Shown here: one piece after another, positions 30,327 through 52,134 of the stretch | Position numbering within the stretch: the first letter of the stretch is position 1 | Layout of the letters: each line of letters opens with the position of its first letter | Origin: Candidatus Planktophila sp. | GTDB lineage: Bacteria > Actinomycetota > Actinomycetes > Nanopelagicales > Nanopelagicaceae | NCBI GenBank assembly: GCA_044348425.1 | Contig: JBIKSV010000001.1 | Location: forward strand, 2,079 to 66,078 | Length of the DNA: 64,000 nt | Reading direction: 5' to 3' | Program-made: the position numbers and the translations under genes | The notes under the pieces: model-generated | What the model was told of the DNA's origin: nothing | Database searches by the model: none | Seen by the model: only the letters and a program-made list of their open reading frames with translations

Positions 30327-30365
30327 TTCACTCCAATGAGGTAAGGGGCATTGATGAAACTATAG

Positions 30366-30401
30366 GAAGAGAACCGGGCCGAAACCGACCCGGTTCTCTT
30401 C
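30366..30401 (-). other. intercistronic stem-loop after the binding-protein gene (mRNA stabiliser or attenuator)
   Basis: gaagagaaccggg-N10-cccggttctcttc, a 13-bp perfect stem. Confidence 0.7.
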
Positions 30402-30434
30402 ACTATTTAGTTATTGCTATTTATTTACTGCTCT

Positions 30435-31739: not shown

Positions 31740-31858
31740 TACTGCTCCTATCATTTTTGCTTAATGAAAGATCCAAGCGACCCGATGTCTCTTGGAGTAG
31801 ATCCCATCAAACTAACTTCGCTGGCAGACCGAAAATGTGAGGCTCGCCACTTCACAAA

Positions 31859-35164: not shown

Positions 35165-36577
35165 TTAGCGCGGGATAAATTCCTTTGAAGTAAAGGAATT
35201 CTTAATGAGAGCCCTCGCCTCTGTGAGGTCTTTGACCACACCGGCTGCAATTGCTTGCACGGCAATATTTCCAAAGAGAGTCGCCTCGACCGGGCCGGTC
35301 TTTACGGGCACTCCACAGATATCAGCGGTAATTTGGTTGAGCAGGTCATTCTGTGAGCCCCCACCGAGGATATGAATCAGGTTGATCTGTCGCCCAGAGA
35401 CAGTGGCGATCTCGGCGAGCGTCTTTTTGTAGGCGTGGGCAAGGCTATTAAAGATAGTAATCGCAAATTCGCCTGGGGTCGTTGGGGCGGTTAGGCCGCG
35501 ATCACGACAGTAATCAACGATGCGCTTTGGCATATCTCCCGGAGGTGCAAAGAGGGGATCGTTGGGATCGATAAGAGTTGAAAATCCGCGAGCTGCTTCT
35601 GCTTGGGCAATAAGAGCAGGCATCTCTATTTCGGCACCGCTTTCACGCCAAGTGCGACGACATTCTTCTAATAACCACATACCAGTTACATTTTTAAGGA
35701 CGCGCACCGTTCCCTCAACACCTAATTCATTTGTCACATTAGCTGCAAAGGCGGCGTTCGATGTAAATGGGCGCTCGCTCTCTATTCCCACAAGTGACCA
35801 TGTACCGCTGGATATGTATGCCTCCACTTCGCGATTACCAAATGGAACACCCGCAATCGCAGATGCAGTGTCATGTGATGCTGCAGCTACAACGTTGATT
35901 CCATCGAGGCCCGGATAACCTGAAACTTTGCCGATATGAGTGCCTGGTTCATGAAGTGCTGAAAAGAGCGAAAACTTTAGATCTGCTAACTCAATAAGTT
36001 CTTTATCCCAAGTTCGAGTAGCTGTGTTGAGTGCTTGAGTGCTTGAGGCGTTAGTTACTTCAGTTGAGATTACTCCAGAGAGAATAAAGTTAATCAAGTC
36101 AGGGAGCATCAAGAATTTATCTGCGTTCTTATACTCAGGCAAAGAACGTGATGCGTAAAGTTGGTAGATAGTGTTAAAAGTTAAGAACTGAATACCTGTT
36201 GTTGAATAAATCCGCTCTTTACCCAACTTTGCAATCAGCTCTTTAGAGGCAATCTCATTACGGAAATCCCGGTAAGCGTGGATATCACCGATTAACTTTT
36301 TATCACTCGAGATAAATCCATAATCAACAGCCCACGAATCAACAGCAATACTTATTGGCTTAGAGATTTTTGCTGCCTCATTGAGTCCAGTTAGAACTTG
36401 CGAGAAAATGAAATCCCAATCCCAAAGAAGTGAACCGTTGGATTGTTCGGCTACTTCGTGAGAGAAGCGGTGAACGATTGAGAGCTCGATTGAACCTTTA
36501 TCTACGCTACCGATAGCAACGCGTCCGCTGGTCGCGCCGAGATCTACCGCTAAGAATTGGTCCATTTTTGAGCTCAA
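35165..36577 (-). CDS. rhaB: rhamnulokinase
   Basis: AVDLGATSGR, DSWAVDY, SHDTASA, ISSGTWSL, GGGSQN. Confidence 0.92.
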   Translation of the reverse strand: MSSKMDQFLAVDLGATSGRVAIGSVDKGSIELSIVHRFSHEVAEQSNGSLLWDWDFIFSQVLTGLNEAAKISKPISIAVDSWAVDYGFISSDKKLIGDIHAYRDFRNEIASKELIAKLGKERIYSTTGIQFLTFNTIYQLYASRSLPEYKNADKFLMLPDLINFILSGVISTEVTNASSTQALNTATRTWDKELIELADLKFSLFSALHEPGTHIGKVSGYPGLDGINVVAAASHDTASAIAGVPFGNREVEAYISSGTWSLVGIESERPFTSNAAFAANVTNELGVEGTVRVLKNVTGMWLLEECRRTWRESGAEIEMPALIAQAEAARGFSTLIDPNDPLFAPPGDMPKRIVDYCRDRGLTAPTTPGEFAITIFNSLAHAYKKTLAEIATVSGRQINLIHILGGGSQNDLLNQITADICGVPVKTGPVEATLFGNIAVQAIAAGVVKDLTEARALIKNSFTSKEFIPR

Positions 36578-38614
36578 TTAGCGCATAAATGCAGCTGCTA
36601 CTCCGCTATCAACCGGAATATGCAACCCAGTGGTGAGTTGAAGATCGGATGCACAGAGAACAAATACAGCTGCAGCAATATTCTCAGGGAGAACCTCGCG
36701 TTTTAAAATTGAGCGCTGCGCGTAATATTCGCCAAGCTTCTCTTCTTCAACACCATAAACAGCAGCGCGATTAGCGCCCCATCCGGATGAGAAGATGCCT
36801 GAACCGCGAACAACTCCATCAGGATTTACGCCATTGACGCGAATCTGATGCGCACCGAGCTCAGCAGCAAGAAGTCTTACCTGATGAGCTTGGTCAGCCT
36901 TAGTGGCGCCGTATGCGATGTTATTTGGTCCAGCAAAGATCGAATTCTTTGAAGAGATGTAGACGATGTCGCCACCCATATTTTGGGCAATCATCGCCTT
37001 TGCTGATTCACGAGACATCAAGAATGAACCGCGGGCCATTACATCGTGCTGTAAATCCCAATCAGCAACAGTTGTTTCGGTCAGTGGCTTACTTAATGAG
37101 AGACCAGCGTTATTGACAACGAGATCAACGCCACCAAATGCAATTGAAGCAGCATGCACTGTAGCAATAATTGCTTCTTCATCCGTGACATCCACCTTGA
37201 CGGCGATAGCACGATCAGCATTTCCGATTTCAAGAGCAACTGCAGTTGCTGCATCAAGATCGCGATCGGCAACGACGACACAGGCACCTTCAGCTGCCAA
37301 GCGAAGGCTTGTTGCTTTTCCGATACCTGAACCGCCACCTGTAACAATTGCCACACGACCAGCAAGTGGCTTTGGCTTTGGCATGCGACGAAGTTTCGCC
37401 TCTTCAAGCTCCCAGTATTCAATTCTGAACTTTTCAGATTCATCAATTGGCTCATAAGTTGATACTGATTCAGCCCCACGCATTACGTTGATTGCATTGG
37501 TATAGAACTCACCTGCAACTCGAGCGGTCTGCTTATCTTTTCCGTAGCTAAACATTCCAACGCCAGGAACCAGAATGATTAATGGATCAGCACCACGCAT
37601 GGCAGGAGAGTCTGCGGTGGCATACTTTTTATAGTAATTGGCGTAGGTTTCACGATATCCAACATGGAGCTCATGTGCGCGAGCGATAATCTCTTCAACT
37701 GAGGCGCTCGAAGGGGTGTCGATTACCATCGGAGAAATCTTTGTTCGCAAGAAGTGATCAGGACATGATGTTCCGAGCGCAGCAAGGCGCCCTAGCTCTG
37801 CGTGTGAAATGAAATCTAGAACGACATCGCTATCGTTAAAGTGACCGAGCATTGGATTATCTTGTGATGCGATTCCACGTAGCGCTGGTGCAAGTAAAGC
37901 TGCCTTTGCTAGACGAGCCTCAGGCGCCAGGGGAGCTCTCTCTTTAACTGCTGCACCAAAAGGATCCTTCTTTCCTTTGCTTGCTAAAAACTTTTCGGCT
38001 TTTTCAATTGCATCGATAGAACGCTTCTCGCACTCATCAGATGTATCCGCCCATGTTGTTAAGCCATGTCCGCCGAGGATTGCTCCCTTGGCTTTTGGAT
38101 TCTCTTTGGCAATAGCGGCAATATCGAGACCGAGTTGAAAACCAGGGCGACGCCAATCAACCCAGAGAATCTCATCGCCAAAACATTCGCGAGTAAGAGC
38201 TTGACCATCTGCAGCTGTTGCTAGAGCGATAATTGAATCTGGGTGTAGGTGATCTACGTGTGCAGTATCAACCAGCCCGTGCATTGCAGTATCAATTGAC
38301 GGCGCTGCGCCACCACGACCAAAAGTGCAGTAATCAAAGAGTGCAACCATTTCATCTTCGTGTTCGACGCCACGATAAACGTTAACGAGTGCACGCATTC
38401 GATCAAGATAGAGCGCTGCTAGACCCGACTCTTTAAGAGTTCCTAGATCACCGCCAGAGCCTTTGACGTAGAGAACATCTACTTTTTCTCCTGTAGATGG
38501 ATCCTGAGCTTCACCTTTGGCAGATGTATTGCCGCCTGCGTAGTTGGTGAACTTTGGGTTACTCCCTAGTCGATTACTGCGACCTAATAACTCTTCAACG
38601 CTCTTCTTACTCAT
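36578..38614 (-). CDS. rhaEW: bifunctional rhamnulose-1-phosphate aldolase / short-chain (lactaldehyde) dehydrogenase
   Basis: GGNTSAK, HVDHLHPD, CPDHFLRTK aldolase half fused to an SDR domain (TGGGSGIG, NNAG, YGATK). Confidence 0.92.
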   Translation of the reverse strand: MSKKSVEELLGRSNRLGSNPKFTNYAGGNTSAKGEAQDPSTGEKVDVLYVKGSGGDLGTLKESGLAALYLDRMRALVNVYRGVEHEDEMVALFDYCTFGRGGAAPSIDTAMHGLVDTAHVDHLHPDSIIALATAADGQALTRECFGDEILWVDWRRPGFQLGLDIAAIAKENPKAKGAILGGHGLTTWADTSDECEKRSIDAIEKAEKFLASKGKKDPFGAAVKERAPLAPEARLAKAALLAPALRGIASQDNPMLGHFNDSDVVLDFISHAELGRLAALGTSCPDHFLRTKISPMVIDTPSSASVEEIIARAHELHVGYRETYANYYKKYATADSPAMRGADPLIILVPGVGMFSYGKDKQTARVAGEFYTNAINVMRGAESVSTYEPIDESEKFRIEYWELEEAKLRRMPKPKPLAGRVAIVTGGGSGIGKATSLRLAAEGACVVVADRDLDAATAVALEIGNADRAIAVKVDVTDEEAIIATVHAASIAFGGVDLVVNNAGLSLSKPLTETTVADWDLQHDVMARGSFLMSRESAKAMIAQNMGGDIVYISSKNSIFAGPNNIAYGATKADQAHQVRLLAAELGAHQIRVNGVNPDGVVRGSGIFSSGWGANRAAVYGVEEEKLGEYYAQRSILKREVLPENIAAAVFVLCASDLQLTTGLHIPVDSGVAAAFMR

Positions 38615-38618
38615 CTAA

Positions 38619-39785
38619 TTAAGCACCCCAACCAGCTTGGTTTCCACCGACACGTTCTGTTGCAATCTTTGCGGCATATCCGCTTGCGGCATAAGCCTTC
38701 ATTGGTTCTGGATCAATGCCTTTATCACTTCTCCATTCGCGCAAAAGTCCACGAACATCAGTGTTGTAAGCATCCATTAAGCATTCGTGTGCAGCCAAAA
38801 CATCACCAGCACGTTGTGCAGCCTTAAGTGCATCTTGATCGACAAGAACTGCTTTTGCTACTGCCTCTTGGACATTCATAATCGAACGAATCTGACCAGG
38901 AATCTTGGCTTCAATGTTGTGGCATTGATCGAGTACATATGAAACTGGAGTTCCAACATCAAAACCACCGTTGATATTTACCTCATGCATAATGCGGAAG
39001 AGCTGGAATGGATCTGCTGCTCCAACAATCAAATCGTCATCTGCATAGAAACGTGAGTTGAAGTCAAATGCCCCAAGGCGCTTGGCGCGCAATAAACCTG
39101 CGACGATGAATTCAATATTTGTTCCTGGTGCATGGTGTCCTGTATCAACAACAACCATCGCCTTTGGACCGAGCGCCATGCAGTGCAATAGTGATGTGCC
39201 CCAGTCAGGAACATCAGTGTGATAAAAAGCTGGCTCGAAGAATTTGTATTCAAGCAACATACGCTGATGATCGCCTAGGTGTGCATAAGCCTGCTGAAGT
39301 GAATCAGCTAAACGGTTCTGGCGATCTGCGATGTCATCTTGGCCTGGATAGTTTGTTCCGTCAGCAAACCAGAGCTTGAGATCTTGCACGCCGGTCTGGT
39401 TCATAATGTCGATACAATCGATTAGATGCTTTACTGCATTTGCTCGCACTTTTGGATCTGGGGCGCAGACTGAACCCAAGATGTATTGATCATCTTGAAA
39501 TGTATTGGAGTTAATTGTTCCGAGCTTTACACCCAGGCTCTGTGCGTGGGCGCTAAAGTCTTTGTAATCTTCGACTTTATCCCATGGGATATGAAGAGCA
39601 ACTGTTGGAGCGGCACCGGTGTACTTATTTACCTGCGCGGCATCTGCAACTTTTTCGTAAGGATCGCGCGGAACTCCTGGTTGCCCGAAGACCTTAAAGC
39701 GCGTACCTGAGTTTCCGTAAGCCCATGAAGGAGTTTCGACTCCTAAGCGATTGAGGACGCTCTTGACTTCACTGTTGCTTGCCAT
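38619..39785 (-). CDS. rhaI: L-rhamnose isomerase (RhaI type)
   Basis: ETPSWAYGNSGTRF, LHIPWD, EYKFFEP, DTGHHA, DQCHNIE. Start moved to ATG 39785 because the longer ORF runs through the operator. Confidence 0.92.
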   Translation of the reverse strand: MASNSEVKSVLNRLGVETPSWAYGNSGTRFKVFGQPGVPRDPYEKVADAAQVNKYTGAAPTVALHIPWDKVEDYKDFSAHAQSLGVKLGTINSNTFQDDQYILGSVCAPDPKVRANAVKHLIDCIDIMNQTGVQDLKLWFADGTNYPGQDDIADRQNRLADSLQQAYAHLGDHQRMLLEYKFFEPAFYHTDVPDWGTSLLHCMALGPKAMVVVDTGHHAPGTNIEFIVAGLLRAKRLGAFDFNSRFYADDDLIVGAADPFQLFRIMHEVNINGGFDVGTPVSYVLDQCHNIEAKIPGQIRSIMNVQEAVAKAVLVDQDALKAAQRAGDVLAAHECLMDAYNTDVRGLLREWRSDKGIDPEPMKAYAASGYAAKIATERVGGNQAGWGA

Positions 39786-39801
39786 TGTTGCCACCATTTC
39801 A

Positions 39802-39857
39802 TTGAATCGGTTCACTTCCAATATGCTCACCGTAAGGCGATTTCAAGCGTGAGTCAA
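39802..39857 (-). promoter_or_regulatory. promoter and LacI-type operator of rhaI-rhaEW-rhaB
   Basis: Minus strand TTGACT (39857-52)-N17-TACGGT (39834-29); operator TTGAATCGGTTCAC at 39802-15. Confidence 0.75.
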
Positions 39858-39934: not shown

Positions 39935-40933
39935 ATGAGCGTAAGCCTTCGAGATGTCGCGAAATCAGCGAAAGTCTCAGTGGGTACCGTTTCGAATGTA
40001 CTTAATCGCCCCGAGATCGTTGCCGAAAAAACATTGCTTCGGGTACGAGAAACAATTAAAGAGCTGGGTTTTGTCCCAAATGGTTTCGCCCGGCAACTGC
40101 GCTTTGGCAATAGCCGCACAATCGGATTGATTGTTCCTGATGTAGCAAACCCATTCTTTACTGAAGTTGCACGCGGTGTAGAAGATGGTGCCAATAAACG
40201 AGAGTATGCAGTTTTTCTCTGCAATTCAGATGAATCGGTAGTAAAAGAAGAGCGCTACATAAATGTTTTGATTGAACAACAAGTGCGCGGTGTTCTATTT
40301 GCACCTAGCGATATCAAATCAAATCGCATGGATGAGATGAAGAGCCGCGGAATTTCAGTCACTCTTTTAGATAGAGAGCAGAAAGGCAACGATCATTGCT
40401 CTGTCTCGGTCGATGATGTTTATGGCGGACATATTGCCATCGAATATCTTGGAGAATTAGGACATCAGAACATTGCCTGGGTCGCAGGTCCTGAAAGCAT
40501 TCCGCAAGTTGCAGATCGAGGCGTAGGCGTTGCAAAAGCAGCAAAAGCCGGAGGACTAAATATTGAGACGATACGAGTTCAGCTGCAGAACTCTGCACAA
40601 GGAGAAGAAGCGGCAAAGTTGATTCTTCAACTTCCCAAGATGCCGACCGCAGTTTTCTGCGCCAACGACCTCTTGGCGCTCGGATTAATGCGTGGGCTGA
40701 TGGCAGCTAAAGTAAAGGTGCCAGATCAGGTTTCTATTTTGGGTTATGACGACATCAATTTTGCATCGTCAGCAGCAGTACCGCTCTCATCAATCTCGCA
40801 GCCCGCTTATCAGATGGGTGTTACTGCAGCAGATTTATTGTTAAGCGAGTGCGAGGACGGCGAAAACCATCAGCACCAACAGATTCGATTCCAACCAAAA
40901 CTCGTAGAGCGCGAATCTACAAAGAAGCGTTGA
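39935..40933 (+). CDS. LacI-family transcriptional regulator of the rhamnose locus (RhaR-like)
   Basis: HTH SLRDVAKSAKVSVGTVSNVLN, NPFF, FCANDLLA, GYDD, LVERES; divergent from rhaI. Confidence 0.92.
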   Translation: MSVSLRDVAKSAKVSVGTVSNVLNRPEIVAEKTLLRVRETIKELGFVPNGFARQLRFGNSRTIGLIVPDVANPFFTEVARGVEDGANKREYAVFLCNSDESVVKEERYINVLIEQQVRGVLFAPSDIKSNRMDEMKSRGISVTLLDREQKGNDHCSVSVDDVYGGHIAIEYLGELGHQNIAWVAGPESIPQVADRGVGVAKAAKAGGLNIETIRVQLQNSAQGEEAAKLILQLPKMPTAVFCANDLLALGLMRGLMAAKVKVPDQVSILGYDDINFASSAAVPLSSISQPAYQMGVTAADLLLSECEDGENHQHQQIRFQPKLVERESTKKR

Positions 40934-41014: not shown

Positions 41015-41206
41015 ATGAAAGTTCGCGTAGACCGTGAAGCATGTATCGGCGCTGGACAATGTGCACTCGTTGCAGGATCTATCTTTGATCAAGATGATGA
41101 AGGATTAGTAATTCTCCTCGTCGAAACTCCTGGCGAAGATTCACATGCAATGGCGCGCAAGGCTGCCACTCTCTGTCCTGCAAAAGCTATCTCCATCGAG
41201 GAGTAA
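41015..41206 (+). CDS. [3Fe-4S]-type ferredoxin (P450 partner)
   Basis: 63 aa from ATG 41015 (GGAG SD): CIGAGQC...LCPAKAI. Confidence 0.9.
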   Translation: MKVRVDREACIGAGQCALVAGSIFDQDDEGLVILLVETPGEDSHAMARKAATLCPAKAISIEE

Positions 41207-41209
41207 GAA

Positions 41210-42382
41210 TTGGCGCCAGCACGTGGGTCAGGAACCATTATCGCTGGCGGATCATTGGCAGGATTTACAACTGCGCAATCACTTCGCTCGGCCGGATATT
41301 CAGAGCGGATACAAATTTTTAGCGGCGAAGATACTTTGCCTTATAACAGACCGCCACTTTCAAAACAGATTCTTTTGGGCACGTGGAGTAGCGAAAAAAC
41401 TATGATTGCAACTCCAGAACTGATGGAGAAGTTAGAGGTTGAATTTCATTCTGGGCAGAACGTTGATTCACTTTCGACCGAAAACCAAGAAGTTACCGTA
41501 GGAAGAGACACATTCGAATTTGAGAAGCTGGTAATTGCTACAGGTGTTCGTGCACGGCAATTAAGCCACACTGCAACATCAAAGCGAACTTTTACATTTA
41601 GAACACTTGCAGATGCTCTTGCAATAAAGGGTTTAATCCCCGAGTTAAGAACAGTAGGAGTTATCGGTTCAGGAGTCTTGGGTTGTGAAATTGCATCTGC
41701 TCTCTCAACGCTAGGCAAAAAAGTTACGATTGTGGATCAAATACCTTTGCCAAATCTTCCTATGACAGGTGGACATGTATCCGGCAAGATTCACGAACTC
41801 TTTACTGCTAACCAGGTAGATATGCGAATGAATACGCAGATTGAAAGTATCTCTGAAGGCGAAAAGTCAGTCAGAATCGAGCTGAAAGATGGCGCTGTAT
41901 TTGAGGTAGATATTTTGATTATTACTATCGGCTCAATAGCAAATACAGAGTGGTTACAGTCCAGCGGAATAGATATCTCTAACGGAGTTCTCTGTGATGC
42001 TAAGGGAGAGGCTAAAGAGAATATCTTTGCAGTGGGAGATGTAGCGCGCTGGTGGAGCAACTCAGCGGGTGCTGCGCTTAAGCGAGAAAATCAGAGTTCG
42101 GCAATTGAGCAAGGCCTTGCGGTTGGCCACTTTATTGCCACCGGTGAAGAGAGCGCTATCTCTCTTCCATTCTTCTGGAGCGAAATATTTGGCGCCAAAA
42201 TTACGCTGACCGGAACCCTAGAGCCAGAACTTCCCTTTGAGGTATTGCATGGCAGTATCGATGAAGATACTTTTGTGGGAGCTACCTTCCGCGGTGATCA
42301 GATGACAGGCGTTATTGGTTGGAATATGTCGAAGGAGTTTCGACAAGAACGTAAAAAAATGGAGGAGAGAGCAAATGGATGA
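41210..42382 (+). CDS. FAD-dependent NAD(P)H:ferredoxin reductase
   Basis: GGSLAG, PYNRPPLSK, ATG, GSGVLGCE, AVGDVA, PFFWS. Confidence 0.9.
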   Translation: MAPARGSGTIIAGGSLAGFTTAQSLRSAGYSERIQIFSGEDTLPYNRPPLSKQILLGTWSSEKTMIATPELMEKLEVEFHSGQNVDSLSTENQEVTVGRDTFEFEKLVIATGVRARQLSHTATSKRTFTFRTLADALAIKGLIPELRTVGVIGSGVLGCEIASALSTLGKKVTIVDQIPLPNLPMTGGHVSGKIHELFTANQVDMRMNTQIESISEGEKSVRIELKDGAVFEVDILIITIGSIANTEWLQSSGIDISNGVLCDAKGEAKENIFAVGDVARWWSNSAGAALKRENQSSAIEQGLAVGHFIATGEESAISLPFFWSEIFGAKITLTGTLEPELPFEVLHGSIDEDTFVGATFRGDQMTGVIGWNMSKEFRQERKKMEERANG

Positions 42383-43580
42383 AGTCAAAGATCAAGTGAG
42401 CGCATGTCCTGCACATAACGTTCGCCGGATTCCAAATGACGGAACCCCTCTCTGTCCTTCACCCACCTTCGCTATTTGGCGAGATGAGGGTGCAGCAACT
42501 CCGCTCGAGTATTCAGATGGTCATCAAGGAATGATCATCAATCGTTACGAACTTGCTCGTTTGATTCTGGAAGATAAGCGATTTAGCCAATCTCCACCTC
42601 GGATGCCGGCGCATCACGGTGAAGTGCTTATAACTGGATACGAACTAACTTCGGGAAGTGAATTAGATGCCGGAAATGTTCTCGGCTTAGATGGCGAGCA
42701 GCACGCTCGAATCCGCAGAACAATTTTAAATCGCTATTCAGTGAAGTCAGCGCGCAGCTATGAGAGCGATATGAAAGAAATTATCGCTAAACAATTTGAG
42801 TTTTTAAAGAGCCAACCGCGCCCAGTTGATATCACCAAGCATTATTCACAACCAATTTCTGCTGCTGGTCATATGCGTGTACTCGGTATCCCAGAGCAAT
42901 TCCGCACGCGATACTCAGAACTTTTTGTCGGAGAGTCAGAGACAGAAGAGAAGGTTGCATTTCTCCGCGAAGTCCTTGCGGTGAAAAAGGATTTATTAGC
43001 TGAAGATGTCTTAAGTGACTTACTTCGCACCGATTTAACTGTTCCTGAAATTGAGGGATTAACGCTCTCATTGATGGTTTCCGGTCGAGATTCAGTTGCG
43101 TACATGATCTCAACAGCGATGACAGCGCTCTTAAACAATCCCGATCAACTAGAAGCACTCAAAGCTAACCCTGAGTTAATACATGGCGGTATGGAAGAAT
43201 TTATGCGCGTAGGCGCCATGTTCCTCACTGTATTCCCACGTACCGCCACTGAAGATGTTGAATTTGGCGATGTTAAAATCCCTGCTGGGCAATCAGTTTC
43301 AGTATCTCCGGTTGCGGCAAATCATGATGAACGCCAATTTGAAGACCCAGATCGCTTTGATTTATCTCGTGATGCCTTCGGCCACATGGGCTTTGGTCAT
43401 GGAATTCACGGATGTGTGGGACAACAAGTCGCTCGTGTAGAGATTAAAACTGCGGTTATGCAACTTATTTCTAACACACCGGGCTTGCACTTGATTAAGG
43501 CAGAACAAAATGAGCCAATGCCATTTGCTCATCCAGTTGCTACCTATGAAGCCGGCGCTGTGATTGTTGATTGGAATTAA
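42375..43580 (+). CDS. cytochrome P450
   Basis: EEFMR (ExxR), DPDRFD, heme loop FGHGIHGCVG (Cys codon 43413); start ATG 42375 with GGAGGA SD. Confidence 0.95.
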   Translation: MDEVKDQVSACPAHNVRRIPNDGTPLCPSPTFAIWRDEGAATPLEYSDGHQGMIINRYELARLILEDKRFSQSPPRMPAHHGEVLITGYELTSGSELDAGNVLGLDGEQHARIRRTILNRYSVKSARSYESDMKEIIAKQFEFLKSQPRPVDITKHYSQPISAAGHMRVLGIPEQFRTRYSELFVGESETEEKVAFLREVLAVKKDLLAEDVLSDLLRTDLTVPEIEGLTLSLMVSGRDSVAYMISTAMTALLNNPDQLEALKANPELIHGGMEEFMRVGAMFLTVFPRTATEDVEFGDVKIPAGQSVSVSPVAANHDERQFEDPDRFDLSRDAFGHMGFGHGIHGCVGQQVARVEIKTAVMQLISNTPGLHLIKAEQNEPMPFAHPVATYEAGAVIVDWN

Positions 43581-43581
43581 T

Positions 43582-44475
43582 GTGAGCGCGAAGTTTAAGA
43601 TTTTATTCGAGGGTGATGCAGCGCATGGCTGGATGCATTCAGGTATTGCAATTCTCAGCGACGGGCGTTTAGTTTTTGAGGCAGCAGGTGGCCGTGGTCT
43701 TGTTTTTCTTGATCTAGCCACTGGCAAGTCAGAGAAGATTGCAGTCGATATAGCAGTCGCACACGGCATAGCAACGACATTCGAATCCGGCGATGATTTT
43801 ATTTGGGTATGCGATCCAGGCGAGCAAGCACCTGGCAAAGTTGTTAAAGTCGATATCAAAGGCAACATTGTTGATGATCTGAAACCGCCCGCAGCATCTC
43901 CTCTCTCAAAAGAGAAGTGGCGACCAACTTCTGTTGCTGTTACTGAAGACGGCGACATTTGGATTGCAGATGGATATGGGTTGAGTCTCGTTCACCGATA
44001 TTCTCCTAATGGAGATGTGATTACTCTCGATGGTAGCGAATCAGGTTTAAAATTTAATTGTCCCCACGGTGTTGCAGTTGATGACCGCGGATCTCAAATG
44101 AGAATCGCCGTGGCAGACCGCACCAACAAGAGAGTCCTACTCTTTGAAAAAGATGGGCGATACATTCGTTCAATCGCTGCCGAGATAATGACTAGTCCTT
44201 CCTCAATCGCCGCATCTGGTGACAATCTATTTATAACGGATCTCCGCGGAGCAATTCTTTCGATATCAAGTGATGACCAAGTCAGCGCGGTTATCCCTTC
44301 AGCCCATATTGATGGGAGAGAGGGCTGGCCAAATGCATTGGTTGATGGCGAAAGCGTCGCCCCGATGATTCAAGCTGGTGAGATCAATAGTCCACACGGA
44401 ATCGTCGCCTCGCAAGATGGCTCGGTCTATGCAACCGAGTGGTACTTCGGCGGGCGGGTTATCTCGCTCATCTAG
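43582..44475 (+). CDS. NHL-repeat beta-propeller protein, peptidylamidoglycolate lyase (PAL)-like
   Basis: AHGI, PTSVAVTEDGDIWIADGYG, FNCPHGVAVD, VADRTNKRV, SPHGI; no signal peptide; probable GTG start at 43582. Confidence 0.75.
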   Translation: MSAKFKILFEGDAAHGWMHSGIAILSDGRLVFEAAGGRGLVFLDLATGKSEKIAVDIAVAHGIATTFESGDDFIWVCDPGEQAPGKVVKVDIKGNIVDDLKPPAASPLSKEKWRPTSVAVTEDGDIWIADGYGLSLVHRYSPNGDVITLDGSESGLKFNCPHGVAVDDRGSQMRIAVADRTNKRVLLFEKDGRYIRSIAAEIMTSPSSIAASGDNLFITDLRGAILSISSDDQVSAVIPSAHIDGREGWPNALVDGESVAPMIQAGEINSPHGIVASQDGSVYATEWYFGGRVISLI

Positions 44476-44494: not shown

Positions 44495-44564
44495 GTTATA
44501 AAAAAAGGATTGACGCAGGCGCAAGCTCCCCACTAAATTCGTCCATATTCTTGAAACGATTCAA
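44495..44564 (+). promoter_or_regulatory. promoter and LacI-type operator of the GH78 pair
   Basis: GTTATAAAAA..TTGACG (44510-15)-N18-TAAATT (44534-39)-N11-TTGAAACGATTCAA (44551-64). Confidence 0.8.
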
Positions 44565-44589
44565 GAGAAATCAGAAATCGAGGCGCATA

Positions 44590-47289
44590 ATGTCCAATCT
44601 GCCAGCACTTACTCAGCGCGATGATCAGAGTCGAGTAATCGGTCTACAGACTCAGTTTTCAGCAGACCTCATTGGTCTGCCAATTGTTGATCCTTTGCTG
44701 ACGTGGCAGATTTCTAGTGATCGCGCAGATGCGGTGCAAGTCGGTTATGAAATTTCATCTATTGGTGAAGATGGTTCAATCATTACATCACCTGCTGTTG
44801 CAAGCTCTGAACAAATCGAGATTCTTGCTTCAGGTCACATTGCCAAAGCGCAAGAGATTCGCCGCTTACGTGTTCGCATCGCAACGCAGCATGGTTGGAG
44901 CGATTACAGCCCAATCGCAACATTTGAGACAGGTCTCGCATCCGGAAATGATTTAGTAGGACGTGCTATTGGCGACAACTCACTTCACTCAGCTCCTTCA
45001 CCAATTTTGCGTAAAGAATTCTCAACAAAGAAGAGTGTTGCTAAGGCGCGCCTCTACGCAACATCTCACGGTATTCATTCACTTTATCTCAATGGCGTAA
45101 ATGTCACAGATGAGTATTTCACTCCAGGTTGGACCGCATTCGATGATCGCGTTACATATTTGACCCATGATGTCACTCGTCTAGTTCAAGATGGCGCAAA
45201 TTGTTTTGCAGCTGAACTCGGTGATGGTTGGACTCGTGGCAAATTTGGATTTATGAACATCTATGACAATTACGGCACAACTATCTCTTTACTTGCACAG
45301 CTTGAAATTACCTATACAGATGGCAGCAAGGATGTCATTGCAACTGATGAAAGCTGGAAAGTTTCAACTGGCGAGATTCAATTTGGCGATATCTACGATG
45401 GATCACATATTGATTTCACTAAGGAGCAGAAGGGCTGGAAACTAGCTGGCTTTAACGATGGTTCGTGGAGCGCACCAACAATCCACACCATTAAGCGCGA
45501 AAATCTATTGCCACGCACTTCTACTCGCGTCATCAAGATTGAAGAGTTCGCTTCAAAGGTAGTCGATTCAAATAACAGAACACTTCTGGATTTTTCACAG
45601 AACATCTCTGGTTGGGTTCGTCTGGTTGTTGACGGCAAGAAGGGCGATGTCATCACAATTCGCCATGCTGAAGTTCTAGAGCCAGGACCAAACCTACATA
45701 CAGCTGCGCTTCGTACTGCAAAGGCGACTGATATCTACACACTCGGACATGATGGTCGCAGTGTTATCGAACCAAAATTTACATTCCACGGTTTCCAATT
45801 TGCTGAAGTTACCGGTCCAGCTAAGTTCATATCTGCAACAGGCGTGGCCATCTCTTCTGCTAATGAGCGACGCGGTCACTTCACATCTTCTGATGCGCGA
45901 CTTAATCGTCTCCATCAGAATGTTGTCTGGTCTATTCATGACAACATGGTTTCTGTCCCTACAGATTGCCCACAGCGCGATGAGCGCCTCGGTTGGACTG
46001 GTGATGCGCAAGCAATCGCAACAACTGCAAACACACTCTTTAAGATCGATTCATTCTGGCGCAGCTGGTTGCAAGATCTTGCAATCGACCAGAAGCGATT
46101 TGGCGCAGTTGGCGCAGTGGTTCCAGATATTTTATCTAAGCACCCATCGCCTGCTTCAGAGGAAGAAGCATGGATCATTACTGACCGCGCCGGATGGGCA
46201 GATGCTGCAACTATCGTTCCGATGGCCGCATATGAATCTTATGGAAGCCTTTCAACGCTAAAGCAACAGGTCGAATCAATTCGCACTTATGTAAAGGGAC
46301 TCTCAGATCGCCGCAAGGGTGAGAAGTTCTTGCCAGAAGAGTTCCAGTTCGGTGACTGGTGTGATCCAGATGCACCTGTTGATCGTCCTTGGCTCTCAAA
46401 GGTAAAGGCGCAGTTTGTAGCTAACGCTTTCTTTGCAAACACAGTTCAGCTAGCTGCTGATGTTGAAGCACTTGCTGGCGACGCTGCTCATCAGAAGGAG
46501 TACACAGAACTAGCGGCAACACTTCGCAAAGATATTTGGGAGCACTTTGGTGCAGAGGCGAAAGAGACAACCGCTGGTTGCTCAATCGCAATTGAATTCG
46601 GCATCGTTCCAGAATCAGAGCGTGCAGCTGTTGCTCAAATCTTGAGCGATAAAGTTATTGCAGATCAAGGAAAGATCACAACCGGCTTCCTTGGAACTCC
46701 GCTGATTTTGCATGCTCTCTCTAAGAACGGTCACTTCAGCGCGGCATACACAATGCTTATGCGTCGCAAGGTTCTTTCATGGCTCTACCAAGTTGATCAG
46801 AAAGCAACAACAATTTGGGAGCGCTGGGATGCAATCTATGAAGATGGTTCTATTCACAAGGGACAGATGTCTACTGCGAGCGAAGAACAAGATAATCCTT
46901 CAATGATTTCATTTAATCACTATGCATACGGCGCTGTAATTGATTGGGTCTACCGCAACGTTGCAGGTATTGCTCCAACAGTTAAGAATCCGGGATATCG
47001 CCACATTACTTTCGCACCACGTCCGGGTGAAGGTTTCTCTTATGCATCTGCATCAGTGAATACACCTCTTGGCGTTGCTTCTATCGATTGGCAGATCGTC
47101 GATGGCGGCAATCTCACTGCAAAAGTTGTGGTGCCATTTGGATCAAAGGCAGTTTTGGATTTCCCAACAACCTCTGGTTCTACAGTTCGCGTTAATGGAA
47201 AAGCTGTTTCAAATAAGCATGAAGTGAGCCATGGTCACTACGACATTCTCGTTTCAGCACCTGCAGTAGCTTCTTTCAAAGTCGCATAA
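44590..47289 (+). CDS. alpha-L-rhamnosidase (GH78), cytoplasmic
   Basis: ARLYATSHG, DFSQNISG, FTFHGFQ, PTDCPQRDERLGWTGD, FGDW, TTIWERW, SFNHYAYG. Start moved to ATG 44590; no signal peptide. Confidence 0.93.
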   Translation: MSNLPALTQRDDQSRVIGLQTQFSADLIGLPIVDPLLTWQISSDRADAVQVGYEISSIGEDGSIITSPAVASSEQIEILASGHIAKAQEIRRLRVRIATQHGWSDYSPIATFETGLASGNDLVGRAIGDNSLHSAPSPILRKEFSTKKSVAKARLYATSHGIHSLYLNGVNVTDEYFTPGWTAFDDRVTYLTHDVTRLVQDGANCFAAELGDGWTRGKFGFMNIYDNYGTTISLLAQLEITYTDGSKDVIATDESWKVSTGEIQFGDIYDGSHIDFTKEQKGWKLAGFNDGSWSAPTIHTIKRENLLPRTSTRVIKIEEFASKVVDSNNRTLLDFSQNISGWVRLVVDGKKGDVITIRHAEVLEPGPNLHTAALRTAKATDIYTLGHDGRSVIEPKFTFHGFQFAEVTGPAKFISATGVAISSANERRGHFTSSDARLNRLHQNVVWSIHDNMVSVPTDCPQRDERLGWTGDAQAIATTANTLFKIDSFWRSWLQDLAIDQKRFGAVGAVVPDILSKHPSPASEEEAWIITDRAGWADAATIVPMAAYESYGSLSTLKQQVESIRTYVKGLSDRRKGEKFLPEEFQFGDWCDPDAPVDRPWLSKVKAQFVANAFFANTVQLAADVEALAGDAAHQKEYTELAATLRKDIWEHFGAEAKETTAGCSIAIEFGIVPESERAAVAQILSDKVIADQGKITTGFLGTPLILHALSKNGHFSAAYTMLMRRKVLSWLYQVDQKATTIWERWDAIYEDGSIHKGQMSTASEEQDNPSMISFNHYAYGAVIDWVYRNVAGIAPTVKNPGYRHITFAPRPGEGFSYASASVNTPLGVASIDWQIVDGGNLTAKVVVPFGSKAVLDFPTTSGSTVRVNGKAVSNKHEVSHGHYDILVSAPAVASFKVA

Positions 47290-47291
47290 AA

Positions 47292-49673
47292 ATGTCATAT
47301 CAGCTTACAGAATCTTCCCCATATCAATATTTCTGGAGCGATGGAAAGCCTCGCGCACAATGGATGCAGGTGCGCGAGGAAGTTGTTGCAGAGCGGGCTG
47401 AGCGTCCGGCATATTTTCTCCGTAAAGAATTTGATGTTTCAACAACAGTAAAAAGAGCATTAATTAAAGCAACCGCTCAAGGCATCTACAATATTTATAT
47501 TGATGGTAAACGCATCGGAGATAAGGTTTTAACCCCCGATACAACAGATTACCGTTTTCATATCGCCGTGCAGGAATACGATGTCACCCGTACTCTCGAG
47601 CCAGGAAAACATACAGTTGTAATTGAGTTAGCAGATGGGTTCTTTCGAAGCTCAACTGGTGTCTGGCGTGTAGATCTCAATTATGAGAATCACGTGGCAG
47701 CGCTCTTCGAAATGGATATCGACTATGCAGATGGAGCTCACCAATCAGTCGATAGTGATATGACTTGGAAAGTTTCACCTTCTCACATCCTTGCTGCCGA
47801 TTTAATGGAAGGCCAAGTTGAAGATCGTCGTCTTTTTGATCCTGCTATAAAGATGAATGGTTTTGATGATTCGACTTGGGGCACACCTATTTTGGGTAGT
47901 ACAGATGCCGCATTAGTAAGAGAGTTTGCACCACCAATCCGAGCGATTGAAGAGCTCAAACCAGTTTCAATTAAAACTTTAGGTGATGGCGCGATTGTTA
48001 TTGATTTTGGTCAGAATATTAATGGTTGGATAAAACTTTCAAATTTAGGCCCACGCGATACGAAAATCGAGGTAAAGCACGGTGAGGGTCTTTATCCAAA
48101 TGGCCACGTAAATATGGAGAGCATGATTCTCTCACTGCCTGGAGCAGCAAGTGATACAGGTGGGCAGCGAGCATTCGTGACTTCAAGTGGTGTGAATGGT
48201 GATCTCTTTGAAAATTACTTTACAACTCAAGGTTTTCAGTTTGTTGAAATCATCGGGCACCCGGGTCCAATTACTGCAGAAGAGATAAGTGCGGTCGTTG
48301 TACATTCAGATCTTCGTCGCACAGGGTGGTTCACCTCCGATAACGAGAACCTCAATTGGTTGCATGAAGCGACAGTCTGGTCATTCCGAGACAATATGTG
48401 TGGAGTTCCCACAGATTGTCCAACCCGAGAACGCGCTGGATGGACTGGAGATTGGCAACTCTTTTCACCAACCGCAGCATTTTTATATGACGTCCTTGAT
48501 GCCACGCGAAAATGGATGGCAGATGTTGTGGTGGGTCAGACACCTGATGGTGTAATCCCGAACATCGCCCCATCGGATAAGAAAATGCGCCCTGAGGGTG
48601 AGTACTCACTCATGAACGGTTCAGCAGGTTGGGGAGATGCAATCGTTTCTACTCCGCTGGATATGTATAACGCTTATGGCGACCTCAAATTAGCGCGTGA
48701 ATCTTGGGGCGCTATGGTGAAGTGGATGGATTTTGCTTATGCACGAGCAAAGAATTTGCGCCATCCTGATCGTGCCGCAGCGCGCCCTGTACCTGCCGAG
48801 CATGAAGAATTTATCTGGGATGCTGCATTTCACTGGGGTGAATGGCTTGCAGCAGGAGACGCCCTCCCTACTAAACCCGAAGAGTTTTTCACACCTGATC
48901 ATGGAATTACTGCAACTGCCTACATGTACCGCTCTACTTTGCAGATGATTGAGATTGGAAAATTATTAGGCAAATCAGATACAGAATTAGGGAAATATTT
49001 CGATATCGCTCCAAAAATTAAAGATGCCTGGCAAAAAGAGTACATCCGTTCAAGTGGACTTCTTTCAGAAGAAACTCAAGCAAATTACTTGCGAGCACTG
49101 CACTTTGATTTAGCACCAAATGAACTACGAGATGGTATGGGCAAGCGACTTGTTGCAATCATTCGCGAAGCCGGAAATCACTTAGGAACGGGCTTTCTTG
49201 CTACACCGTATCTTCTTACTACGCTTGCAGATGTTGGCTATACCGATGTTGCCTATGACTTATTGTTTCAAGATACCGTGCCATCATGGATGTACATGAA
49301 AAAGAAAGGCGCTACAACAATTTGGGAAAGCTGGAATGGTATTGATGATGATGGAAAGCTTGAAGCATCGCTCAACCACTACAGCAAGGGTGCGGTGATT
49401 TCATTTTTGCATAGATACATCGCTGGATTAAAACCACTGGCTCCCGCATATAAGAGTTTTGTAGTAAAGCCACATTTGAGCAGCAAGGTCAATGAAATTG
49501 ATCTCAAGCTAGATTCGCCAAACGGTCGCGTCGAAGTTCAATGGCAATCCAAGAATGGAAAATTTGATATTCGAATTCTGGTTCCGGCCGGATCAACTGC
49601 TACAGCAGAGCTACCAGATGGCAGTTCTCACGCTTTAACTTCAGGTGAAAACAAACTTAGCTGCGCTCTGTAA
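47292..49673 (+). CDS. alpha-L-rhamnosidase (GH78), cytoplasmic, lacking the first N-terminal domain
   Basis: DFGQNING, PTDCPTRERAGWTGD, HWGEW, TGFLAT, TTIWESW, SLNHYSKG. Confidence 0.92.
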   Translation: MSYQLTESSPYQYFWSDGKPRAQWMQVREEVVAERAERPAYFLRKEFDVSTTVKRALIKATAQGIYNIYIDGKRIGDKVLTPDTTDYRFHIAVQEYDVTRTLEPGKHTVVIELADGFFRSSTGVWRVDLNYENHVAALFEMDIDYADGAHQSVDSDMTWKVSPSHILAADLMEGQVEDRRLFDPAIKMNGFDDSTWGTPILGSTDAALVREFAPPIRAIEELKPVSIKTLGDGAIVIDFGQNINGWIKLSNLGPRDTKIEVKHGEGLYPNGHVNMESMILSLPGAASDTGGQRAFVTSSGVNGDLFENYFTTQGFQFVEIIGHPGPITAEEISAVVVHSDLRRTGWFTSDNENLNWLHEATVWSFRDNMCGVPTDCPTRERAGWTGDWQLFSPTAAFLYDVLDATRKWMADVVVGQTPDGVIPNIAPSDKKMRPEGEYSLMNGSAGWGDAIVSTPLDMYNAYGDLKLARESWGAMVKWMDFAYARAKNLRHPDRAAARPVPAEHEEFIWDAAFHWGEWLAAGDALPTKPEEFFTPDHGITATAYMYRSTLQMIEIGKLLGKSDTELGKYFDIAPKIKDAWQKEYIRSSGLLSEETQANYLRALHFDLAPNELRDGMGKRLVAIIREAGNHLGTGFLATPYLLTTLADVGYTDVAYDLLFQDTVPSWMYMKKKGATTIWESWNGIDDDGKLEASLNHYSKGAVISFLHRYIAGLKPLAPAYKSFVVKPHLSSKVNEIDLKLDSPNGRVEVQWQSKNGKFDIRILVPAGSTATAELPDGSSHALTSGENKLSCAL

Positions 49674-49963: not shown

Positions 49964-50587
49964 GTGGCCCACATCCTTGTCATCGATAACTATGACTCCT
50001 TCGTCTTCAATCTTGTGCAATATCTCGCACAACTTGGGGCGAAGACCACTGTCGTACGTAACGATCAGGTCGAGGCAGGCGAGGCAGCCAAGTACGACGG
50101 CGTTCTCATTAGCCCAGGACCAGGCACTCCCGATAAAGCTGGTGTATCTATCGCGATGATTAAGTATTGCGCCGAAAACTCGATTCCGCTCTTTGGTGTG
50201 TGTCTTGGACACCAAGCAATCGGTGAAGCATTTGGTGCAACTGTTTCGCGAGCACCTGAGTTATTGCACGGAAAAACATCGCAGGTCAATCACAATGGTT
50301 TAGGTGTGATGAAAAATCTACCGACACCATTTACTGCAACTCGTTATCACTCACTTGCAGTCGAGCGCGACACTGTTCCGGCAGAACTTGAGATAACAAG
50401 CAGCACAGATTCCGGAGTCGTAATGTCTCTGCGTCACCGCACATTGCCGATCGAAGGCGTGCAGTTTCATCCTGAATCTGTTCTTACCGAACATGGACAT
50501 AAGATGTTAGGAAATTGGTTGGTGCAATGCGGTGATGCTGAAGCAATTAACCGCGCTGAAGGATTATCTCCAGTAATCAGCAAATAA
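49964..50587 (+). CDS. trpG: anthranilate/aminodeoxychorismate synthase glutamine amidotransferase
   Basis: IDNYDSF, SPGPG, GVCLGHQ, RYHSL, QFHPES. Confidence 0.93.
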   Translation: MAHILVIDNYDSFVFNLVQYLAQLGAKTTVVRNDQVEAGEAAKYDGVLISPGPGTPDKAGVSIAMIKYCAENSIPLFGVCLGHQAIGEAFGATVSRAPELLHGKTSQVNHNGLGVMKNLPTPFTATRYHSLAVERDTVPAELEITSSTDSGVVMSLRHRTLPIEGVQFHPESVLTEHGHKMLGNWLVQCGDAEAINRAEGLSPVISK

Positions 50588-50589
50588 GT

Positions 50590-52134
50590 TTAAGGCTGCT
50601 TATTAATTGTGATCGTTACTGAATTTCCAATTGTCTGGGTACTGCCAGCTTCAGGAGCTTGCCTGATAACAACTCCTTCGGGCTGAGTTGCATCGTATTC
50701 AATAAACTCTTTGATTAAGAATCCTGCTTGAATCAAAATTGTCTTAGCTTGAATTACTTCAACACCAATGAGATCTGGGACAGTGATTTCACCGCTGGCA
50801 ATTGTCAGAACAACTCCGCTACCTGCTGTGGTTATTGAACCAACTTCAGGCGAGACTTCGAGGATTGTTCCTTGCGGTTGATCAGATGGAGCGGCAATAG
50901 TCTGCGAAACCCTAAGTCCAACAGCGGTTAAGGCGGCGCGAGCATCGATGAGCGCCATTCCAATTAAATTGTCAGGAACAATCGCATTTCCGGGACCATC
51001 AGAAATTGTGAGAACAACAGCAGAACCACTTGGTGCGCGAGTAGTAGCAAGTGGTGATTGGCTAGCAATGCGCCCCTTAGGGATTACCGCATCATGGGCG
51101 GTCTTTATCGTGATGACATAGCCATCTAACAGGGCACGAGCTTCGCTTTCAGAGAGGCCGACAAGATTAGGAATCATTGGACCAGGCTCCTCTACACCGC
51201 TGAGCAAGAAGCCAGTGATTGAGATGGTTATTGCTGCGAGAAAAGCGCCACCGTAGGCAAGTGCGCTGCGACGAGTAAATAGCGGTTTGGTTGCAACTTT
51301 GGTTGTGACGCTCTGGCCTTGGCGTACTCTAACTAAATCACTCAACATCGCATCGGCGCTTTGATAACGATCATCAACTTTCTTAGCTAGCGCAACTTTG
51401 ATAATTGTTTCAATGCCGGCAGGCAAATCACTTTGCAATGCGCGCGCAGATGGGATCTCTCCTGATACATGTTGATAAGCGATAGATACCGGGGTCTCTC
51501 CAGTAAATGGAGGTTGACCAGTGAGAAGTTCAAAGAGCAGGCAACCTGTTGAATAGATATCGCTACGCGCATCAGCAGGTTCGCCCACTGCTTGCTCAGG
51601 AGAAAGGTATTGAGCAGTGCCGACTACGTTCCAGGTACTAGTAAGTGTCGCACCTAAGTCATCCATCGCTCGGGCAATGCCAAAATCCATCACCTTTACA
51701 TCGCCCGTATCTGTAATCATGACATTAGCGGGTTTGATATCGCGATGAACGATATTGCGCTGATGTGAATACTCAAGTGCAACGAGAACTTGTTCAACAA
51801 TTGTCAGTGCACGATTGAGCTCTACTCGCTCGCCTTGATGTATCAACTGGCGCAAGGTGTGGCCTGTAACTAGTTCCATAACTATGTACGGAGCTGGCTC
51901 TTCGCCAGAGTCATAGACCGCAACGATTCCAGGATGGTTAAGACCGGCAGCAGCTTTTGCCTCTTTGCGGAAACGTGAAACGAAGGCAGGATCTTTTGCA
52001 AGATCGCTTCGCAAAATCTTTACTGCGACTTCACGGGAGAGGCGCTGATCTTGGGCGATATAGACATCGGCCATTCCGCCAGTGCCAATCATTTCGCCTA
52101 AGAGATAGCGATCTCCAAGGAGCGTAGACATCAT
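50590..52134 (-). CDS. pknB: PASTA-domain Ser/Thr protein kinase
   Basis: GTGGMA, VAVK, HRDIKPAN, DFG, GTAQYLSPEQ, TM segment, about three PASTA repeats. Confidence 0.93.
   Translation of the reverse strand: MMSTLLGDRYLLGEMIGTGGMADVYIAQDQRLSREVAVKILRSDLAKDPAFVSRFRKEAKAAAGLNHPGIVAVYDSGEEPAPYIVMELVTGHTLRQLIHQGERVELNRALTIVEQVLVALEYSHQRNIVHRDIKPANVMITDTGDVKVMDFGIARAMDDLGATLTSTWNVVGTAQYLSPEQAVGEPADARSDIYSTGCLLFELLTGQPPFTGETPVSIAYQHVSGEIPSARALQSDLPAGIETIIKVALAKKVDDRYQSADAMLSDLVRVRQGQSVTTKVATKPLFTRRSALAYGGAFLAAITISITGFLLSGVEEPGPMIPNLVGLSESEARALLDGYVITIKTAHDAVIPKGRIASQSPLATTRAPSGSAVVLTISDGPGNAIVPDNLIGMALIDARAALTAVGLRVSQTIAAPSDQPQGTILEVSPEVGSITTAGSGVVLTIASGEITVPDLIGVEVIQAKTILIQAGFLIKEFIEYDATQPEGVVIRQAPEAGSTQTIGNSVTITINKQP

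Follow-up and report, generated by a model that had tools for sequence, protein, structure and literature searches.

The peptidyl-alpha-hydroxyglycine alpha-amidating lyase (PAL), exemplified by the rat PAM core (PDB 3FVZ/3FW0), is a six-bladed propeller that acts after an oxygenase and carries, in order, three histidines and a Tyr/Arg dyad; the dyad is described in PMC10303134. Bacterial PALs with in vitro activity are also known, and their natural functions are stated to be unclear (PMC10900485). One of these, ExiPAL of Exiguobacterium, is presented in the same article as having the five residues (H95, H210, H309, Y178, and R225), being proposed to retain the Ca-site Asp (D310), and cleaving hydroxyglycine peptides in vitro. 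Here we analyze a PAL-like gene (43582..44475, plus strand) in a stretch of 64,000 nucleotides from Candidatus Planktophila sp. (contig JBIKSV010000001.1, positions 2,079 to 66,078), hereafter the window, to which all coordinates refer unless a locus is named. The gene encodes a 297 aa six-bladed NHL propeller, a candidate formaldehyde-releasing zinc lyase, and directly follows a cytochrome P450 gene.

The other described systems that resemble this locus handle methyl ethers or formaldehyde. In the CYP236A system of marine Flavobacteriia, a P450, a ferredoxin and a reductase are encoded among glycosidases, and 6-O-methyl-D-galactose is converted to the sugar and formaldehyde (PMC8360166, PMC10033563); PMC8360166 describes this demethylation as hydroxylation plus decomposition. 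In the available text of these articles, the decomposition step has no assigned enzyme, and the helpers are an alcohol dehydrogenase (ADH) and an esterase, whereas the locus studied here has a rhamnose context and a PAL-like propeller as the helper; the two systems are likened by gene context, not by P450 sequence identity. MocDEF demethylates 3-O-methyl-scyllo-inosamine, a rhizopine (PMC13434037), with the caution that other mocDEF clusters may have other substrates (PMC5132102). Finally, Fae and Gfa speed up spontaneous reactions of formaldehyde, and cells can do without Gfa (PMC8879981). Taken one by one, PAL-like proteins of bacteria, sugar demethylation by P450s and MocDEF have all been described before; what is new is the genomic company of this PAL-like subfamily, namely, oxygenases and the formaldehyde dehydrogenase FdhA. 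A literature search, with subscription papers and supplements outside its scope, turned up no article that connects a PAL-like propeller with formaldehyde, FdhA or methyl-ether oxygenases. We see roughly even chances that the propeller is a zinc lyase of the cytoplasm that, after O-demethylation, breaks down R-O-CH2-OH (and perhaps methanediol) to formaldehyde.

The five putative active-site residues are in frame, in order, and at the codons reported in the initial annotation of this region, all on the plus strand. By codon and register with rat PAM, His61 (AHG; CAC, 43762..43764) is a predicted Zn ligand at the position of rat His585, and Tyr132 (DGYG; TAT, 43975..43977) is the predicted catalytic base at the position of rat Tyr654. 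By codon and conservation, His162 (CPHG; CAC, 44065..44067) and His272 (SPHG; CAC, 44395..44397) are predicted Zn ligands, and Arg180 (VADR; CGC, 44119..44121) is the predicted partner of the catalytic Tyr. The ordered set of five motifs was found in only one of the 910 stop-free frames of at least 250 aa in this genome, a frame on the contig of the window with the same length as the propeller ORF. The propeller starts with GTG at 43582, 1 nt after the P450 stop codon (TAA, 43578-43580), and an alternative TTG start at 43564, overlapping the P450, is possible. In a crude check, the N-terminus contained no extended run of hydrophobic residues (highest Kyte-Doolittle mean over 10 residues, 1.34).

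The AlphaFold model of the protein has six blades (pLDDT 95.6), and residues 1-297 align with residues 500-810 of rat PAL (3fvz; Z 27.1, rmsd 2.8, 259 aligned residues, 24% identity); the Pfam NHL profile (PF01436) matches with 56.7 bits, against a cut-off of 20. In the model, H61, H162 and H272 mark where the inner strands begin in blades 2, 4 and 6, preceding or opening strands E62, E161 and E271, and Y132 and R180 come after the second strand in blades 3 and 4, respectively. By general propeller topology, these five positions should share one face. In matched ranges against full-length rat PAM, residue 585 is paired with the blade-2 His in two paralogues (ungapped or end-anchored), and residues 653-654 with the DGYG Tyr of the query; the correspondence to His690, Arg706 and His786 is one of order and spacing only.

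The site is nearly invariant among relatives, the closest of which come from freshwater actinobacteria. In the best 80 of 232 matching genome loci, all five residues are retained in 78, the exceptions being one locus with Tyr in place of H162 and one cut by a contig end; these loci were retrieved with the DGYG pattern, so that the Tyr is conserved there by construction and not as independent evidence. In an alignment of the query with 65 of 120 listed protein-search matches, Y132, H162, R180 and H272 are present in 66/66 sequences, and H61 in 65/66. The PAL-type His3/Tyr/Arg site proposed in the initial annotation is thus borne out, and the protein does not group with the SMP-30 lactonases. 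Virginiamycin B lyase (Vgb) and SMP-30/gluconolactonase are propeller enzymes as well and gave weak Pfam and fold matches, but both assignments were rejected: the Pfam SGL score (24 bits) is below the cut-off of 26.3 and the blade starts carry His, Thr and Ser, whereas the Vgb_lyase profile scores 19.7 bits against a cut-off of 50 and Vgb superposes at an rmsd of 6-8. The metal ligands of SMP-30 are Glu, Asn and Asp. In the ESM Atlas, the protein is placed among NHL clusters that are unnamed or labeled "peptidylamidoglycolate lyase".

Several features set this subfamily apart from PAL. The residue after the third His is Gly in 77 of the 80 loci (G273 here) and Asp in a single one, in place of the Ca-binding Asp of PAL, and the column of the FNRG Arg present in a more canonical PAL-like paralogue contains Arg in one of the 80 members. 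In rat PAL, the blade-1 Arg that binds the substrate carboxylate is Arg533, to which the FNRG Arg may be equivalent. No signal-like stretch was seen in the protein, in contrast to the secretory location of PAL. The copper monooxygenase PHM, the partner of PAL, was not found among the annotated neighbors, where the adjacent oxygenase is a P450, and the context is one of one-carbon and sugar metabolism. The 80-locus alignment further reveals conserved residues specific to the subfamily that were missed by the initial annotation: W17, H19, W249-P250-N251, and E286-W287. Blade 1 opens with a further conserved His, the fourth, His19 (43636..43638), present in 79/80 loci (the other is truncated) and 65/66 proteins; the WPN motif (44326..44334), on a subfamily-specific insertion, is present in 80/80 loci and absent from the canonical PAL-like paralogue in locus L048. 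Compared with ExiPAL-type bacterial PALs, likened here by residue lists and not by alignment, the subfamily is distinguished by its recurring genomic link to oxygenases and FdhA. Judged by sequence and model, the propeller is a PAL-type site in a distinct subfamily and not a PAL by full membership.

Partner genes lying up to 4.5 kb from the propeller were called with profiles derived from these same loci. Among the 80 loci, 25 contain a P450, 24 an FdhA-type gene only, 5 a MocD-type gene only, 2 both MocD and FdhA, and 24 none, that is, a partner is present in 56 loci, and in 30 of the 41 clusters obtained by dereplication at 70% identity. The subfamily spans Actinomycetota and Chloroflexota (SAR202). 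All 26 FdhA-type genes are on the same strand as the propeller and at most 500 bp away; 10 score above the cut-off of the NCBIfam model of glutathione-independent formaldehyde dehydrogenase, 3 are incomplete, and 13 Chloroflexota sequences reach 358-376, FdhA remaining their best family. For two of these proteins, one per full-length kind, the first PDB matches are formaldehyde dehydrogenase and dismutase. Clustered at 40% identity, the P450 partners split into five groups, between which identity is 21-35%, and on the propeller tree, a quick version without bootstrap, the partner label changes 9 times for P450 (at least 6 by starred branches), 4 times for MocD and 4 times for FdhA. Partners were therefore recruited or swapped more than once.

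MocD/E/F-like genes adjoin the propeller in 7 of the 80 loci. The MocD-like partner is 57.7% identical to the annotated MocD of Rhizobium etli and is accompanied by a Rieske ferredoxin and a reductase, with inositol-type genes in three such loci. In two evenly drawn samples (401 genomes), the propeller profile detected six other genomes: in four, the gene directly upstream encodes a P450 (one propeller is broken); in one, it encodes a PhyH-family dioxygenase of the iron/2-oxoglutarate-dependent (Fe/2OG) type, in a fucose/rhamnose-type cluster; and the sixth has an orphan. A metagenome scan with the P450 yielded three near-identical loci only, which provide no independent evidence. Sugar markers (GH78, RhaI, IolG/E, LacI, ROK) occur in 19/32 oxygenase loci vs 2/24 FdhA-only loci. 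The initial annotation had called for a check of co-occurrence with P450 genes, and the link was found in 25 loci and five P450 groups; its logic of an oxygenase followed by a lyase is likewise supported by the neighborhood partners. The narrower claim of a P450 specifically replacing PHM was abandoned, because the slot is also filled by MocD-type and PhyH-type oxygenases and, as often, by FdhA.

Three unrelated oxygenase chemistries and a formaldehyde dehydrogenase have formaldehyde, we infer, as one obvious common metabolite. Oxidative O-demethylation passes through R-O-CH2-OH, an intermediate well suited to PAL chemistry, in which a zinc-bound alkoxide expels the leaving group and an aldehyde results. 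Somewhat more tentatively than for the propeller of the window, we suggest that the whole subfamily may be a general formaldehyde-hemiacetal lyase (R-O-CH2-OH -> R-OH + CH2O, where R is a sugar, a cyclitol or H), and, with a similar degree of caution, that demethylases of the heme, di-iron and Fe/2OG kinds, and likewise FdhA, may have acquired it as a partner repeatedly in Actinomycetota and Chloroflexota (SAR202). In the relatives, the propeller would serve MocD-type or Fe/2OG oxygenases, or would supply FdhA with formaldehyde from adducts or from methanediol (R = H).

Published values are available for the hydration barrier (67.1 kJ/mol, PMC12160001) and for the hydration K of methanediol (about 2000, PMC12599531). 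The methanediol half-life computed from these values is ~127 s at 25 C, slow enough to be worth catalyzing, which counters the argument of the initial annotation that the lability of hemiacetals speaks against a dedicated lyase for them. The hemiacetals that sugars form with formaldehyde behave similarly. The propeller would then speed up a step that proceeds slowly by itself and, like Gfa, would not be essential, which would fit its one-way, patchy association. Fae and Gfa belong to unrelated families and condense formaldehyde with a carrier.

In the window, the propeller is the fourth gene of an apparent operon that starts with a small ferredoxin of 63 aa (41015..41206), a ferredoxin reductase (41210..42382) and the P450 (401 aa, 42375..43580); two GH78 alpha-L-rhamnosidases, A (44551..47289) and B (47292..49673), follow, all on the plus strand; a LacI-family regulator (39935..40933, plus strand) is encoded upstream. 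The minus strand carries the L-rhamnose isomerase RhaI (38619..39830; TIGR02635, 604 bits, above cut-off), the rhamnulose-1-phosphate aldolase/dehydrogenase RhaD (36578..38614; TIGR02632, 1001 bits, above cut-off) and a rhamnulokinase-like kinase RhaB (35165..36577; TIGR02627, 472 bits, the best match but below the cut-off of 528). A complete P450/ferredoxin/reductase set is thus embedded among glycosidase and sugar-catabolic genes. The P450, with the heme Cys in FGHGIHGCVG and an Asp-Ser acid-alcohol pair, is a candidate methyl-sugar O-demethylase. Among the 60 best PDB matches, the closest solved P450 is StvP2, followed by other actinobacterial P450s; StvP2 oxidizes a methoxy group via a hemiacetal and also carries the Asp-Ser pair (PMC7481197), a likeness that, at such a sequence distance, is only a weak hint of function. 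GH78 or RhaI is found beside the P450 group of the window in 3 of its 14 loci among the 80.

We envisage the following pathway. The two GH78 enzymes, assigned to the family by annotation, would free rhamnose and methyl-rhamnose from glycans; 3-O-methyl-rhamnose is reported in moss and fern walls, and methylated sugars are frequent in algae (PMC12590268). By analogy with CYP236A and MocDEF, the ferredoxin/reductase/P450 chain would hydroxylate O-CH3 to O-CH2-OH, most likely on methylated rhamnose. Zn held by H61, H162 and H272 would bind the hemiacetal oxygen, and Y132, aided by R180, would take its proton; if the chemistry carries over from PAL, the C-O bond would break to yield CH2=O and free rhamnose. 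RhaI, RhaB and RhaD would consume the rhamnose, and the formaldehyde would pass to folate, given that FolD and PurU are both found in this genome. If correct, this would point to an oxidative use of methylated rhamnose by freshwater actinobacteria with small genomes and to a means of formaldehyde handling in SAR202. It would also assign an enzyme to the breakdown of formaldehyde hemiacetals that follows oxidative O-demethylation, a step that textbooks call spontaneous, and a natural function to the bacterial PAL-type active site, tying the site of the animal amidating lyase to microbial one-carbon chemistry. The subfamily offers a concrete and cheaply testable substrate class for bacterial PAL-like enzymes, the natural role of which is stated to be unclear (PMC10900485), and the propeller could serve as a helper in demethylase biocatalysis.

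Several observations weigh against this function. The top fold match of the model is the non-catalytic NHL domain of TRIM71 (Z 29.6, above the 27.1 of PAL), and because non-catalytic NHL domains slightly outscore PAL, the fold alone shows no function. The formaldehyde-release reaction also runs unaided in minutes. Of the 24 loci with no partner, 11 form one freshwater clade with housekeeping surroundings and an intact site, and several others have short flanks; in addition, a homologue on an Embleya plasmid has none of the tested partner genes within 7 kb. FdhA is present in 58 of the 401 sampled genomes of the phylum (2 of the 58, unpublished, were used in this count only) and in none of the three that have the propeller, and in none of the 29 FdhA loci examined (30 fetched) is a propeller located within 1.5 kb of FdhA. 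Seven other P450 matches include two with a propeller next door and five without, the P450 paralogue of this very genome (64% identical) being one of the five, and the CYP236A and R. etli mocDEF clusters also lack such a propeller. The genome (84% complete) has no FdhA, mycothiol-dependent formaldehyde dehydrogenase or HxlA above cut-offs, and no Fhs match. Furthermore, the same P450 group occurs with a GH89 alpha-N-acetylglucosaminidase in two further genomes, and in a clade of six loci, whose retrieved flanks contain no rhamnose gene, it adjoins a dimethylargininase-like gene; methyl-rhamnose is therefore not the sole context of this P450 group. The notion of an obligate pair was rejected: the association is one-way, with P450 and FdhA often found without a propeller.

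The main rival to the formaldehyde-releasing lyase, in our view an unlikely one, is a formate-ester hydrolase. The hemiacetal would be oxidized once more, by the oxygenase or an FdhA-type enzyme, to R-O-CHO, and the His3-Zn propeller would hydrolyze this ester to formate and sugar, a route with no free formaldehyde at all. The same neighbors fit, the position of the propeller after FdhA in the gene order would be explained, no dedicated formaldehyde dehydrogenase was found in this genome, and CYP236A clusters carry, per PMC10033563, an unexplained ADH and esterase in the same slot. However, the Tyr/Arg dyad of the lyase is invariant, the ligands of SMP-30-type hydrolases are absent, and the operon in the window has no dehydrogenase, so that the P450 would have to perform two oxidations.

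The N-linked substrate favored by the initial annotation, with the propeller as a carbinolamide lyase acting on an N-hydroxymethyl or alpha-hydroxy amide produced by the P450, fares worse, and we consider it distinctly doubtful. FdhA often serves N-demethylation, and GH89 in two genomes and the dimethylargininase-like gene in six related loci, all beside the same P450 group, would suit such substrates. Moreover, carbinolamide cleavage is what animal and bacterial PALs have been proven to carry out (PMC10900485), and hemiaminals are described as relatively stable (PMC12636437). The evidence on the other side is that the oxygenase loci are mostly sugar or inositol clusters, with rhamnose, inositol and fucose contexts that, together with the O-demethylase MocDEF as a partner, point to methyl ethers, and that the FNRG Arg of canonical PAL-like proteins is missing. 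Some members could act on N-hydroxymethyl adducts, which would merge this alternative with the formaldehyde-hemiacetal lyase.

There is little probability that the protein acts as a lactonase or hydrolase on sugars in general, or that it is a propeller that binds metal without catalysis and travels with catabolic cassettes. The 24 partnerless loci and the PAL-like scores of non-catalytic NHL domains in sequence and fold searches would be readily accommodated, but the invariant His3/Tyr/Arg set and the SGL score below the cut-off argue otherwise, and 26 tight pairings with FdhA outside sugar clusters (sugar markers in 2 of 24 FdhA-only loci) would be left unexplained. Least probable of all is a formaldehyde-activating or transfer enzyme that loads the one-carbon unit on tetrahydrofolate or a thiol: although Fae and Gfa (PMC8879981) set a precedent, FolD and PurU are encoded in this genome, a ketopantoate hydroxymethyltransferase-like gene follows mocDEF in R. 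etli and the additional conserved W/H/E residues could bind a second substrate, the commonest non-oxygenase partner, FdhA, needs no carrier, and there are no folate or thiol genes among the annotated neighbors.

Some further observations concern the gene neighborhoods. In R. etli, mocDEF is followed by the ketopantoate hydroxymethyltransferase-like gene (L143:8697-9506) in the slot occupied elsewhere by the propeller; it may be a further helper in one-carbon metabolism or may belong to the neighboring nad operon. A 332-aa gene that also comes after mocDEF in R. etli was suspected of encoding the propeller but proved to be an NrtR regulator. The orphan P450 paralogue of the Planktophila genome (G000:C79:334-1542, locus L092) lacks both a reductase and a propeller and adjoins yajQ-rarD-polyprenyl synthase, a slot that in related freshwater genomes (L014-L017, L019, L044) holds an orphan propeller; the shared slot can be read as a split cassette or as an insertion hotspot. 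In four loci of the same genus (L086-L088, L104), an orphan P450 of this group (45-46% identity) lies between pknB and a glutamine amidotransferase gene, the latter being the gene that borders the cluster in the window (49964-52134); in L104, a GH78 gene is found 4.5 kb from the orphan P450, with no redox partner or propeller within 20 kb. A scan of the cluster in the window for promoters and terminators gave chance-level numbers (11 vs 14.8 and 9 vs 8.6, respectively), GC content is flat across the cluster, with no compositional sign of recent transfer, and the binding protein of a sugar-type ABC transporter, together with two probable permeases, is encoded at 28567-31754, 3.4 kb past the rhaB-like gene.

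Among the relatives, five loci are titled "Bifidobacterium breve" or "Streptomyces griseus" (L003-L005, L011, L016), but their propellers group with those of freshwater actinobacteria, and the titles look mislabeled; two loci from records titled Nitrososphaerota archaea (L059, L061) carry the subfamily without any tested partner. Locus L022 has a ferredoxin, a reductase, LacI and rhaI beside the propeller, whereas the P450 of its sister locus L023 is missing. More distant PAL-like propellers, on plasmids of Moraxella and Persicobacter (L140:2180-6738, L141:1-6735), keep DGYG but have SRE, SRG or ARI in place of ADR, and adjoin genes for a glycyl-radical enzyme and the corresponding activase; the Persicobacter locus (L141) also has a PhyH dioxygenase. 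In nine SAR202-type Chloroflexota loci (L043, L049, L051, L052, L054, L055, L062, L067, L075), an FdhA-like gene, the propeller and a second, paralogous propeller are arranged in tandem, and a third, divergent NHL protein is encoded upstream. Self-sufficient P450-reductase-2Fe-2S fusions are encoded directly upstream of the propeller in two loci (L031:5701-7899, L053:4118-6388), in L031 together with inositol catabolic genes.
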